DNA from: Candidatus Harrisonbacteria bacterium CG10_big_fil_rev_8_21_14_0_10_40_38
Lineage (GTDB): Bacteria > Patescibacteriota > Minisyncoccia > UBA6257 > 1-14-0-10-40-38
NCBI GenBank assembly: GCA_002773535.1
Contig: PFAZ01000001.1
Coordinates: forward strand, 89,273-153,272
DNA length: 64,000 bases
Direction: 5' to 3'
Every line of letters begins with the position of its first letter. Position 1 is the first letter of the stretch. The translations under genes were made by a program, and so were the position numbers. Positions 4,602 through 23,878 of the stretch are shown here, one piece after another. The notes beneath the pieces are model-generated. The model did not search any database, was not told the DNA's origin, and was given only the letters and a program-made list of their open reading frames with translations.

Positions 4602-5765
4602 TTAGCCTGTCGCTTTTTGCATTCCACTCACGCTAAGTAAATCACTTGCAATCAAATTTGCCGAATCCGCAATAAAAAACTTTTTACCAGCCGCTTCCAT
4701 AGAGCTCCGCTTTTCTTGATTGGAAATAATCCCCTGAACCTCACTCATCAAAAGCGCCGGTAAAATATTTTCTTCCTCAATAACTATCGCCGCCCCAGCT
4801 CTTTCATACTGATAAGCATTTTGAACCTGATGATTATTTGCGGAAGTTGGGAGCGGTATGAGGATCGCCGGCTTACCAAGAGCCGCGAGTTCAAAAATCA
4901 CTCCCGCCCCCGCTCTCGAGATAACTACATCAGCCGATGAATATGCAGAAAGAATATTATTCGTAAAAAATGGGAAAAATTTATATCTCGCCTTGGTTTT
5001 ATCTAAAAATCTTGCGCTTAAAAACTCATATTGCTGAACATATTGCGTATAATTTTTTGACCCAATCTGGTGAAGAACCTGAAATTTTGATGTTAAAGTC
5101 TCAATGTTTTCCAAAACAAATTCATTTATATGTTCCGCTCCCTGAGATCCGCACAAAAAAAGCACCACAGGTTCGTTCGAATCAAAGCCAAACTCTATCT
5201 TCGATGCCTTGCTTTCCGAAACATTTAACAAATCAGATCTCACAGGATTACCAACTAAATGAGTTTTTTCTTTTGGCAAATACGCGGCAGCTTCCGAAAA
5301 AGAAAGCTCTATAAGTTTTGCAAATTTTGAAGAAAGTTTTGTTGTTAAACCGGGAATAGCATCCGATTCATGAACCACGATCGGCACAGTATAAAATCTA
5401 CACACAGCAACAACAGAAAAAGCTCCCGGGCCGCCTTTTGAAAAACAGACATTGGGCATAAACCAAAATATCTTCCACAATCCCTGAACAACGCTCATCA
5501 AAAAACGGAAAATATCAAAAAAGTTTTGTATATCAAAATACCTCCTCCACTTACTCGGGGTTATGTGAATTACTCTAACACTGGCATTTTCCAGAACTTC
5601 TCTATACTGCTTTGGATCTCCAAAATATCTTATATCCGGCTCATATCCACTCCCGGCTATTTGTTTTTGAAGCGCTTCAGCAACAGCGGCAAGAGGATAA
5701 ATATGTCCGCCGGTTCCCCCACCGGTCAAAAGCACTCTTATTTTTTTCAACTGACTTCTCGCCAT
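4602..5765 (-). CDS. murG: UDP-GlcNAc:undecaprenyl-PP-MurNAc-pentapeptide GlcNAc transferase
   Basis: N-terminal GGGTGGHIYP glycine loop typical of MurG; 387 aa; adjacent to ftsW and mraY. Confidence 0.85.
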   Translation of the reverse strand: MARSQLKKIRVLLTGGGTGGHIYPLAAVAEALQKQIAGSGYEPDIRYFGDPKQYREVLENASVRVIHITPSKWRRYFDIQNFFDIFRFLMSVVQGLWKIFWFMPNVCFSKGGPGAFSVVAVCRFYTVPIVVHESDAIPGLTTKLSSKFAKLIELSFSEAAAYLPKEKTHLVGNPVRSDLLNVSESKASKIEFGFDSNEPVVLFLCGSQGAEHINEFVLENIETLTSKFQVLHQIGSKNYTQYVQQYEFLSARFLDKTKARYKFFPFFTNNILSAYSSADVVISRAGAGVIFELAALGKPAILIPLPTSANNHQVQNAYQYERAGAAIVIEEENILPALLMSEVQGIISNQEKRSSMEAAGKKFFIADSANLIASDLLSVSGMQKATG

Positions 5766-20344: not shown

Positions 20345-20812
20345 CAAGCTCAATAAGAGCACAAATTTGTAAAGTACTTTTTGGAGGAGAATCATGCGCA
20401 AGTCCTGCCCCGTCCCCTTTTGCGACTCTCACACCGATTCGCGACTGAAGCGCCGGCTCCGTGGAAACCACGGAGAACGTCACCGTCGTCGCATCAATCG
20501 CGAGCTGGAAAAATTCATCTCCCTCGCGACGGCCAGGTCGACAGTGCCAGAGGGGGCGAGACGAGTCGCCCCCACACCTCCACCCGCAAGGACGAGAGTC
20601 GCTCGTCTCTTCTCGGGGTTGCGCAGGGTCTTCGCCCTGAGCTAGCCACTACCCCACCAAACCGCCCTACACACTGCAAAGTGTGTAGGGCATTCCATTT
20701 TAAAAAGACTTCAAAATCAGTTATAATCAAAAACAGCGAGATAGATTTTGGGTACTAAACAACCCTCCCCAAGGGGGATAAAGCGCCCATAAATCTATCT
20801 CGGTTTTTTTTG
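20345..20812 (+). ncRNA. candidate novel structured RNA (GC-rich, ~470 nt); alternative reading: 83-aa Arg-rich ORF 20394-20645
   Basis: ~60% GC core in a ~38% GC genome; all three overlapping frames on both strands are open (expected for GC-rich RNA); many hairpins (ccgtgg-aaa-ccacgg, gggggcga...tcgccccc, gccctacacac...gtgtgtagggc); ends at a compound terminator 20737-20811. GGAGGA plus ATG at 20394 keeps a basic-protein reading possible. Confidence 0.4.
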
Positions 20813-21529: not shown

Positions 21530-21760
21530 TTGTTTTGTAAACATTTCGATGGTATATTGCAAATAGCAAAAATTGACTCTGGGCTGGTCCGTGGTGAACC
21601 TCTAAGTAGAGATTCGTAGCCGTGATCTACCAGCCCAGAGTCACTACATAGTTCCTTTCCATAGCTCGGGGGCAATCAAATGTGTTTATCCAGTGAGGGG
21701 TCTGGCAGAACCCGAAAATAGCTAAATACATATGACCTGTCCCCGGGTCATTCTTTTTTT
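21530..21760 (+). ncRNA. candidate small RNA with 14-bp perfect inverted repeat (promoter TTGTTT-N17-TATATT; terminator 21732-21760)
   Basis: gactctgggctggt (21575-21588) pairs with accagcccagagtc (21629-21642); the arm motif ctctgggctgg recurs at 21205-21217; hairpin plus T8 terminator. Confidence 0.35.
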
Positions 21761-22816: not shown

Positions 22817-22902
22817 AAGTGGTACTTCAAACCTCTAAACCCCCTACCCCCGACACAACCTCGTCGGGGTATTTTTTAACAATCGTTTTACTTTACTATG
22901 TG

Positions 22903-22973
22903 CTGCGGGACCTGGATTCGAACCAGGATACTCGGCTTCAAAGGCCGATGTCCTACCATTAGACGATCCCGCA
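22903..22973 (-). tRNA. tRNA-Gln (anticodon UUG), CCA not encoded
   Basis: Hand-folded cloverleaf: acceptor TGCGGGA/TCCCGCA, D-arm GTCT/GGAC, anticodon stem TCGGC/GCCGA with loop CTTTGAA, T-arm CCTGG-TTCGAAT-CCAGG. Confidence 0.75.
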
Positions 22974-23014
22974 ATAAATTGTTCAACTACTCTACATATA
23001 ATTCTACAAGAATA

Positions 23015-23085
23015 ATGTCCTACTTGCCTCGCCGAACCCAGCTTTGCGAGGGTAGGCGGGCCATTAGACGATCCCGCAATAAATT
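23015..23085 (-). pseudogene. partial duplicate of the tRNA-Gln 5' half plus 5' flank, interrupted by a 37-nt structured insert
   Basis: 25 nt (23061-23085) identical to 22956-22980 and atgtcctac (23015-23023 = 22948-22956); insert 23024-23060 forms nested stems; anticodon/T arms absent. Confidence 0.6.
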
Positions 23086-23160
23086 TATTTTAAACTCTGA
23101 TTTTCCAAAAAAATCTATCATAAAAATTAAGAATCCACAAACAAAAAACTAAACATAAAA

Positions 23161-23198
23161 CCCCACAAACGCTTCGCGCGCTGTGGGGCTTTTTTCAC
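23161..23198. terminator. bidirectional rho-independent terminator
   Basis: ccccaca...tgtgggg hairpin flanked by T-runs on both strands. Confidence 0.6.
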
Positions 23199-23878
23199 CT
23201 TCCAGCATAGAGTCGCCATCTGTAAGAGGGCGTTCCTCTTTTTTCTTCAGTAGACGACATCTCTCTACTGAAAAGTGTCGCCTGTCTCGATATGATATCC
23301 GTACTAAGTACAGGTACGCAATTGTCATGCAGCGTTGTACCAGCAAAACACAGGTTATGGAGGGACGCATGAAAAATCGAAATCGCCGCAATCAATCCTT
23401 CCCAAATATCAAATGGACACCTCTCTTGGTCATTTAGTTTTTCGAGATCATGAGTTACGGTATTCCCCTTCAACGTTCGTCCATCCAGAACATCTACGAG
23501 TATATATGCCTTATTATATGTAGTGGGAGAAACAGTCGAAGAGTAAGACTTATGCTCTGAAGTTTCAGGGAGTGTCGACGTTCCATTAGCCTCGCCTCTT
23601 GTCACTTTATTCATTAAACTCTTTGCAACTTTACCATTTACAACATCAGGGCGAGGCGGCACTAACAGAAACAACCCAGGGAAAAGTTTTTGTCGCAAAA
23701 AACGAATATCTTTGTCAGGAATATGAATATCCGCACCACGCAACCTCTCAACCTGTTCATCAAACAATCTCGTGGGATCAATTCGATTATTTAAAACAGT
23801 CATCCGCTCATTGGTAAGAATCGTTGTCTCGCCTTGCTTTACAACAGTCCCCGATTCTTCCATTGAGTTTTCCTCCAC
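23195..23878 (-). CDS. hypothetical protein
   Basis: 227-aa ORF, no recognisable motif; slightly GC-enriched. Confidence 0.4.
   Translation of the reverse strand: MEENSMEESGTVVKQGETTILTNERMTVLNNRIDPTRLFDEQVERLRGADIHIPDKDIRFLRQKLFPGLFLLVPPRPDVVNGKVAKSLMNKVTRGEANGTSTLPETSEHKSYSSTVSPTTYNKAYILVDVLDGRTLKGNTVTHDLEKLNDQERCPFDIWEGLIAAISIFHASLHNLCFAGTTLHDNCVPVLSTDIISRQATLFSREMSSTEEKRGTPSYRWRLYAGR

Follow-up and report, generated by a model that had tools for sequence, protein, structure and literature searches.

Shortly upstream of the only tRNA gene called in a 64,000-nucleotide stretch of a Harrisonbacteria genome (Candidate Phyla Radiation, CPR; contig PFAZ01000001.1, positions 89,273 to 153,272; hereafter the window) lies a partial copy of that same tRNA-Gln(UUG) gene, split by a short GC-rich palindrome. 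What is this fragment, and by what route did it arise? Comparison with other genomes reveals a recurrent arrangement, here called the cassette, in which a 5' fragment of tRNA-Gln, a GC-rich hairpin and the gene for a very small GIY-YIG nuclease precede a tRNA-Gln gene. The cassette occurs in several phyla, its hairpin and nuclease are inherited together, and derivatives exist from which the open reading frame (ORF) has been deleted. The window feature is probably a derivative of this kind, ORF-less and more decayed. A full-text literature search (incomplete for subscription journals) found no published description of a palindrome cassette combining GIY-YIG with tRNA-Gln or transfer-messenger RNA (tmRNA), and the tRNA-Gln-linked cassette is apparently undescribed.

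The locus is built around an intact gene. ARAGORN calls tRNA-Gln(UUG) at 22902-22973 on the minus strand, and Rfam RF00005 matches it with 66.8 bits (E 2.4e-12; gathering threshold 29), in agreement with the identity given in a preliminary description made from the sequence alone. That description had the tRNA followed by its copy; the partial copy is present, but the tRNA lies on the minus strand and in its orientation the copy precedes the gene, with a start-to-start distance of 105 nt. The repeat search returned an exact 25-nt repeat (22956-22980 = 23061-23085) whose identity had been reported correctly, although it consists of 7 nt of flank plus tRNA nt 1-18, counting T22973 as nt 1, rather than 8 nt plus nt 1-17. 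The 17-mer GCGGGATCGTCTAATGG occurs twice in the window, against 0.08 occurrences expected from shuffles. A further shared 9-mer, ATGTCCTAC, had also been recognized: at 23015-23023 it matches tRNA positions 22948-22956. The insert, described as 37 nt, is there, but the extra DNA amounts to 37 nt plus one ambiguous G. No second copy of it was found in the 64-kb window (<=3 mismatches) or in the viral contigs searched. The features of the locus are as follows:

22902..22973, minus strand: intact tRNA-Gln(UUG) with a U1-A72 pair and G73; CCA is not encoded (ARAGORN and Rfam RF00005).
22974..22980, minus strand: 5' flank of the tRNA, AATTTAT, 7 nt; with nt 1-18 it forms repeat copy 1 (22956-22980).
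22981..23014, minus strand: A/T-rich spacer TATTCTTGTAGAATTATATGTAGAGTAGTTGAAC, 34 nt, with a -10-like TAGAAT; the slot of the GIY-YIG ORF (~80 aa) in intact cassettes.
23015..23023, minus strand: GTAGGACAT, a copy of tRNA nt 18/19-27 that includes TAGGACA (sequence and cassette comparison).
23024..23060, minus strand: imperfect palindrome CCCGCCTACCCTCGCAAAGCTGGGTTCGGCGAGGCAA, 37 nt, 68% GC, between G18/G19 and U20 of the D-loop.
23061..23078, minus strand: copy of tRNA-Gln nt 1-18, TGCGGGATCGTCTAATGG (repeat search and 17-mer count).
23079..23085, minus strand: second AATTTAT, repeating the 7-nt flank of the tRNA; L057, one of the compared loci, also has this flank before its fragment.
23087..23092, minus strand: -10-like TAAAAT, 8 nt upstream of the fragment, read by eye; putative promoter of fragment, hairpin, spacer and tRNA.
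23160..23187, minus strand: terminator hairpin belonging to the orphan gene at 23198-23863; the tRNA unit extends upstream no further than this.

The same terminator palindrome is called on the plus strand, at 23171-23189, by a terminator scan, and a simple consensus promoter scan made no call near the element, the TAAAAT site at 23087..23092 included. The upstream partial copy comprises nt 1-27 only and drew no tRNA call from ARAGORN or Rfam, even at E<1. No copy of the tRNA 3' half or anticodon arm and no other tRNA fragment was found elsewhere in the 64 kb, and a split or intron-containing tRNA was rejected, there being no 3' half in the window. Three more independent metagenome assemblies match the region throughout at 100% identity (four in all, of one Harrisonbacteria species), so the locus is no assembly artefact.

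Taken by itself, the window would call for no more than a duplication of the 5' part of the tRNA, slipped or in tandem, plus a chance palindromic insertion without wider significance; the two copies match at 34/34 positions. Against this, at least 12 loci in several phyla repeat the arrangement, hairpin position included to the nucleotide, which makes a mere local accident hardly credible. The pattern used to find such loci was GGGATCGTCTAATGG, a gap of 10-40 nt and then TAGGACA, scanned over 185,579 species-representative genomes, the source genome not among them; it gave five matches versus about two expected by chance. One match, in Shewanella (L014), has neither hairpin nor tRNA and was set aside as chance. 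The four true matches come from a Bdellovibrionales metagenome-assembled genome (MAG; L015), a Saccharibacteria MAG (L016), an unclassified MAG (L017) and Staskawiczbacteria (L018); labels of this form denote compared loci, the window's own locus being L001. All four lie upstream of a real tRNA-Gln on the same strand, the matched segment itself being no tRNA gene, and the gap is in every case a GC-rich hairpin that starts with CCC, is otherwise different in sequence and occupies the same D-loop position. Hairpins are positioned as in the window at L015-L019, L050, L055 and L057. At L017 and L018 the ATG of a GIY-YIG-only ORF (PF01541, E ~1e-15, 80-84 aa) stands no more than 2 nt behind TAGGACA, and the ORF ends 24-73 nt before the tRNA, filling the gap up to it. 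TAGGACA holds the sequence AGGA, likely the ribosome-binding site of the ORF where an ORF is present. No ORF lies between TAGGACA and the tRNA at L015, at L016 or in the window, and Rfam 15 finds nothing but tRNA in the window region or at L015-L018.

A profile of the L017 and L018 ORFs retrieved 681 homologues of about 80 aa from CPR bacteria, Saganbacteria, Margulisbacteria and others, many of them on very short contigs. Genomic context was examined for 10 of the 681, and every one of the ten lies just 5' of either tRNA-Gln (eight: L017, L018, L019, L032, L040, L050, L055 and L057) or tmRNA (two: L029 and L054). A tRNA-Gln 5' fragment, at least one GC-rich hairpin and TAGGA(CA) before the ORF are present in 8/8 tRNA-Gln cases. 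In the tmRNA cases the ORF is located between smpB and the tmRNA gene, and the hairpin abuts the tmRNA 5' end. The proteins fall into two subfamilies, A and B, and across the 10 intact cassettes hairpin type H1 accompanies A and H2 accompanies B. PF01541 covers about 70 of the 80-84 residues of these proteins, which have no DNA-binding domain, and the group I intron endonuclease model TIGR01453 scores 21.5 bits, below its cut-off of 56. YazA-type genes of related CPR genomes (L009, L010 and L012) score 52-62 bits versus 127-144 for the cassette proteins and lie in ordinary operons, without tRNA fragment or hairpin. Annotated phage and plasmid records yielded only weak YazA-like matches, with no tRNA context. 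The two tmRNA loci (L029 1501-2241 and L054 1501-2283) share the order smpB, subfamily A GIY-YIG gene, tmRNA, with synteny continuing into infC and rpmI; at both, H1 runs directly into the leading G residues of the tmRNA, and its orientation in one genome is the reverse of that in the other. The Parcubacteria-like contig of L012 carries, at 833-908, a tRNA call by ARAGORN with four anticodon bases (ctta) and no assigned identity.

How the window relates to intact cassettes is best seen through L016. Its 43-nt spacer consists of an ATG followed by GGCAATGAGTTTAAAAAGATTATTAAAAGTTAA; 25/28 nt agree with the 3' end of the L040 ORF, a match equalled by none of 2000 shuffles, and the spacer is demonstrably an internally deleted B-type ORF. 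The window has the corresponding parts: a copy of tRNA-Gln nt 1-18 (23078..23061) on the strand of the tRNA and 105 nt upstream of its start, a GC-rich palindrome after the D-loop GG (23060..23024), then TAGGACA in GTAGGACAT. Its hairpin aligns globally with that of L016 at p ~3e-4 in mononucleotide shuffles, a significance that palindromy somewhat inflates, since agreement in one arm entails agreement in the other. The window is filed as a cassette derivative because of this architecture and the analogy with L016, and the relic probably amounts to nothing more than a structured leader of 105 nt on pre-tRNA-Gln that lacks a separate function.

Several points weigh against that placement. A profile search of the six-frame translation found no cassette-family GIY-YIG ORF in the window, and the one trace in its spacer, a 10/10 match of TAGAATTATA to the 3' end of the L018 ORF, is not significant (shuffle p=0.16). 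The window hairpin is similar to that of L016 only, not to H1 or H2, and its palindromic character is weak (z ~-1.8). The tRNA-like flanks were fixed by the scan pattern, and their conservation at L015-L018 is partly by design. The databases searched contained no close relative of the source species by which to date the event or to compare an empty site. The adjacent UvrD/PDDEXK helicase has best relatives of at most 57% identity, whose loci showed no shared gene order and no tRNA-Gln nearby.

Integrative elements classically leave partial tRNA duplications behind, and a more conventional explanation would see here the attachment-site scar of an integrase-type island, with a cation diffusion facilitator (CDF) exporter, a DUF1059 gene and an ORF-free stretch 3' of the tRNA as its decayed cargo. 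The preliminary description had proposed this cargo, and the gene adjacent to the element is indeed an orphan. But the two copies start just 105 nt from each other, on the 5' side, the 64 kb hold no further tRNA fragment, and in homologous loci the inserted DNA, a hairpin with or without a GIY-YIG ORF, lies between partial copy and tRNA; no tyrosine or serine integrase or recombinase was found among the called genes within about 10 kb on each side (precomputed Pfam). With no integrase, no distal repeat and the extra DNA on the other side of the tRNA, the proposed cargo is unsupported, and an island scar is very improbable. The broader part of the suggestion, that the partial copy is the footprint of DNA inserted at a tRNA gene, is upheld, and the involvement of the 5' half is unusual, as had been pointed out. 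A phage attachment site was also considered and rejected: the only viral match to the tRNA 5' half is a complete tRNA-Gln in a phage tRNA array (Met, Thr, Pro, Gln; L013 6475-7186, IMG/VR). The first 26 nt of this phage tRNA-Gln are identical to those of the window's tRNA-Gln, from which it follows that the 5' half is widely conserved.

The hairpins themselves have the properties of DNA-level units. They are 62-81% GC in genomes of about 40% GC, and their pairs are nearly all Watson-Crick, with few G-U. Stems are invariant across loci whose nucleases are about 70% identical, with variation confined to internal-loop positions. One tmRNA site has the inner 16 nt of H1 in either orientation, depending on the genome (L054 vs L029), and at L040 hairpins are nested in hairpins. 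The H1 core is also found, at 30/30 nt, in two unrelated GC-rich viral contigs of IMG/VR (L052 797-826 and L053 2313-2342) with no GIY-YIG gene and no tRNA nearby. Invariant stems, rare G-U pairs, both orientations, viral copies and nesting together point to a palindrome acting as DNA rather than to a selected RNA helix. In L052 the H1 core stands just upstream of GGAATG start contexts, which are themselves repeated with other small palindromes.

Such properties would also suit an autonomous small palindromic repeat, like a repetitive extragenic palindromic (REP) sequence or a miniature inverted-repeat transposable element, that inserts at the D-loop GG/TA and, in the window, settled in a 5' stretch of tRNA-Gln that had been duplicated locally; GIY-YIG genes would then adjoin tRNA-Gln in other genomes for reasons of their own. 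The hairpins do behave as discrete units, including the nesting at L040; a second hairpin sits elsewhere in the L032 fragment, others occupy the T-loop of 3' fragments at L015, and H1 stands free of nuclease gene and tRNA in the two viral contigs. Yet hairpin type tracks nuclease subfamily in 10/10 intact cassettes, the window hairpin is single-copy in 64 kb, and L016, which has the hairpin closest to it, keeps an ORF stub. An independent repeat is on balance unlikely, and descent from the nuclease-linked cassette is preferred.

A junction can be read from a locus at which local and travelling sequence differ. In Saganbacteria (L050) the fragment's nt 1-18 are the local tRNA variant GCCGGATCGGCTAACGG, the hairpin is 37/37 identical to that of L017, and behind it stands TAGGACA, where the local tRNA has TAGGCCA. 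This mismatch puts a boundary at G18G19/U20 of the D-loop. Subfamily B fragments, by comparison, keep GGGATCGTCTAA where the adjacent tRNA differs at 2-4 positions (L018, L019 and L057). The fragment there either belongs to the conserved unit or is under a constraint of its own. Fragments are closely preceded by sigma-70-like promoters, such as TTGTCA-16-TATAAT at L032, TTGTAA-17-TAAAAT at L018 and L040, and TGCTATAAT at L017 and L050; fragment, hairpin, ORF and tRNA accordingly look like one transcription unit.

Folding of the window element reproduced the nested stems of the preliminary description, giving GCGGG/CCCGC and CCUAC/GUAGG around CCUCGC/GCGAGG. The stability is unremarkable, with a minimum free energy of -24.9 kcal/mol for the 76-nt RNA (z -1.6) and z of -1.7 to -1.9 for the DNA fold. 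In the thermodynamic fold of the full 196 nt, the 5' strand of the upstream copy pairs with the 3' acceptor strand of the real tRNA; as a speculation from these models, local pairing of GCGGG and UAGG with the insert may prevent that misfold during transcription.

These folds and promoters bear on one further alternative, in which fragment and hairpin act together as a leader RNA with a function. Such a leader might imitate the 5' part of tRNA-Gln and so regulate how the precursor or the nuclease mRNA is processed or how stable it is, and selection would maintain it even after loss of the ORF. Consistent with it are the retention of GGGATCGTCTAA beside divergent tRNAs, the promoters upstream of fragments, the persistence of cassettes for as long as housekeeping genes, and the ability of the insert start to pair with the acceptor 5' strand, including an A:T for C:G at L015. 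The stems tell against it, since H1 and H2 show invariance without compensatory changes and almost no G-U pairs, and H1 occurs in either orientation at one site; nor is there an Rfam match, and the folding z-score of the window element is ordinary. A selected leader is quite unlikely, even more so than an autonomous repeat, and the ORF-less cassette remains the favoured identity of the window element.

Other tRNA-derived pieces were seen around the compared loci. Downstream of tRNA-Gln(CUG) at L015, on the minus strand at about 4720-4915, are two tRNA-Gln 3' fragments comprising T-arm and acceptor 3' strand, each with a GC-rich hairpin in the T-loop after GGTTCG. Fragments of the tRNA 3' terminus also stand behind the tRNA at L019 and L032, and L018 has a partial second hairpin copy in that position. 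L040 contains a second tRNA-Gln-like gene (1846-1986) with a 65-nt nested double hairpin in its D-loop and with 5' and 3' acceptor strands that mismatch each other. The ARAGORN tRNA call at 1910-1983 uses a hairpin arm as acceptor and D-arm and is a likely source of false annotation.

The arrangement suggests how the cassette could work and spread. An intact one comprises, in order, a promoter-proximal copy of tRNA-Gln nt 1-18, the palindrome at G18G19/U20, TAGGACA (nt 19-25), a GIY-YIG protein of about 80 aa that is nuclease domain only and, within 4-90 nt, the functional tRNA-Gln. It would represent a selfish or formerly selfish element of the homing type, homing-like spread being favoured. 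Its nuclease gene would ride on the tRNA-Gln promoter, and RNase P would release the downstream tRNA from a long precursor. The nuclease would break a cassette-free tRNA-Gln locus and repair would copy the cassette in, with the tRNA-derived sequences serving as homology arms by analogy with phage T4 SegB. The palindrome would split the D-loop site in the truncated copy, and its co-transcriptional pairing with the copy's GCGGG and UAGG might leave the copy unable to compete with the 5' strand of the real tRNA. After fixation the ORF would decay; in the window some 240 nt of it would have been lost, leaving fragment, hairpin, GTAGGACAT and the 34-nt spacer.

Not all observations favour this scheme, in which mobility and spread are inferred from analogy rather than demonstrated. 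Downstream tRNAs of intact cassettes keep an unbroken GG/TAGGACA site, which sits uneasily with the simple idea that the hairpin shields the target, and the absence of a DNA-binding extension argues against a purely selfish homing element. In the syntenic pairs L050/L055, L029/L054 and L019/L032 the cassette is kept and the nucleases are 68-73% identical, as compared with 73.5% for SmpB, 77% for IF3 and 37-55% for other neighbours. To judge by these sequence identities, such retention indicates long vertical residence under purifying selection, and it could mean a domesticated or host function. It is against this background that a wider proposal is offered, tentatively and with more doubt than confidence: that the cassette represents an undescribed kind of element, in which a minimal GIY-YIG nuclease is paired with an invariant, either-orientation GC-rich palindrome at tRNA-Gln (D-loop G18G19/U20) or the tmRNA 5' end, in CPR bacteria, Saganbacteria, Margulisbacteria and others. 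The nuclease would propagate the pair, its substrate being the palindrome, a cruciform or the tRNA gene; the tRNA-derived 5' segment would serve promoter capture and homology, and the window would be a terminal, gene-less stage.

The surroundings of the element in the window deserve a brief description. The 222-aa gene directly upstream (23198-23863, minus strand) has no homologue but itself among 5.8 billion proteins and no Pfam domain. On the other side, the terminator hairpin of the convergent CDF exporter gene (CCCCGAC...GTCGGGG and a T-run, plus strand, 22848-22869) lies 33 nt past the tRNA 3' end and has no U-tract on the tRNA strand. Between 20220 and 21815 are 1.6 kb without a credible ORF or a Pfam or Rfam match. 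Several TTGACA boxes, each right behind a T-run terminator, suggest 4-5 short plus-strand units in this interval. Unit 1 (about 20345-20705) is 60-63% GC in a genome of about 40% GC, has a fold z of -5.8, ends in a strong terminator hairpin (20667-20700) and contains an Arg-rich ORF of 83 aa preceded by a Shine-Dalgarno sequence (20394-20645). The interval also has a perfect 14-bp hairpin (21577-21650) and two occurrences of the motif CTCTGGGCTGG (21208 and 21579). These units are candidates for unknown small RNAs or a foreign GC-rich gene, and the ORF-free island looks like a series of promoter- and terminator-bounded non-coding units, not evidently decayed cargo.

For annotation, the 80 nt between the two repeats should be recorded as a probable relic, and neither the CDF nor the DUF1059 gene should carry the label of island cargo. 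The relic is of modest interest in itself; it led to an architecture that recurs across several phyla. If this reading of the window feature is correct, a nuclease/palindrome module is widespread and has gone unremarked across CPR bacteria and several other uncultivated phyla, and the parasitism of rRNA genes known in CPR bacteria extends to tRNA and tmRNA genes. A class of tRNA-Gln "pseudogenes" would also find an explanation, as would spurious tRNA calls such as that of ARAGORN at L040; contig breaks at such loci would be accounted for, and biochemists would gain a very small nuclease whose DNA target may be defined.

Among known systems, islands and prophages mobilized by integrases use the 3' part of a tRNA gene, encode a tyrosine or serine recombinase and span kilobases. 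The cassette is like them in that a direct repeat of part of the tRNA flanks the insert and a functional tRNA is preserved. It differs in repeating the 5' part, in having no recombinase and in the size of its insert, about 0.3 kb and in the window about 80 nt. REP sequences and bacterial interspersed mosaic elements, the GC clusters of yeast mitochondria and the palindromic elements of Rickettsia are short GC-rich imperfect palindromes of AT-rich genomes, which insert into genes, RNA genes included, and can be nested and occur in either orientation. Cassette hairpins share the GC-richness, the nesting and the freedom of orientation. Unlike REP-type repeats, the window hairpin is single-copy in 64 kb, and the hairpin families are tied to a nuclease subfamily, to one nucleotide position and to one tRNA species. 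The YazA/YhbQ proteins (UPF0213) are of the same size and fold class and are likewise GIY-YIG domains only, and B. subtilis yazA is the best annotated match of a cassette protein, at 42.6% identity. The cassette proteins, in contrast, score higher on the family profile and sit with a tRNA fragment and a hairpin.

Closer in setting are GIY-YIG-encoding insertions, not introns, described in the 16S and 23S rRNA genes of CPR bacteria (PMC11270868). The authors judged these sporadic and not spread by homing, and did not mention tRNA (PMC11270868). Both cases involve the same host group and GIY-YIG ORFs in or next to genes for structured RNAs; neither is a group I or II intron, and both are located at the tops or bases of stem-loops. 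The cassette is distinguished by its association with tRNA-Gln or tmRNA in 10/10 contexts. Phage T4 segB provides the precedent for a free-standing GIY-YIG homing endonuclease gene in a tRNA gene cluster (PMC2330249). As in T4, the cassette places a GIY-YIG gene among or next to tRNA genes without an intron, and its proposed spread would likewise involve cutting of a cassette-free tRNA region and repair that co-converts flanking tRNA sequence. In contrast to segB, the cassette proteins are of about 80 aa, consist of the nuclease domain only, reside in bacterial chromosomes rather than phages, and have a predicted cleavage activity. A further difference is the truncated tRNA-Gln copy, split by a GC-rich palindrome and always upstream, which in the window persists without the gene.

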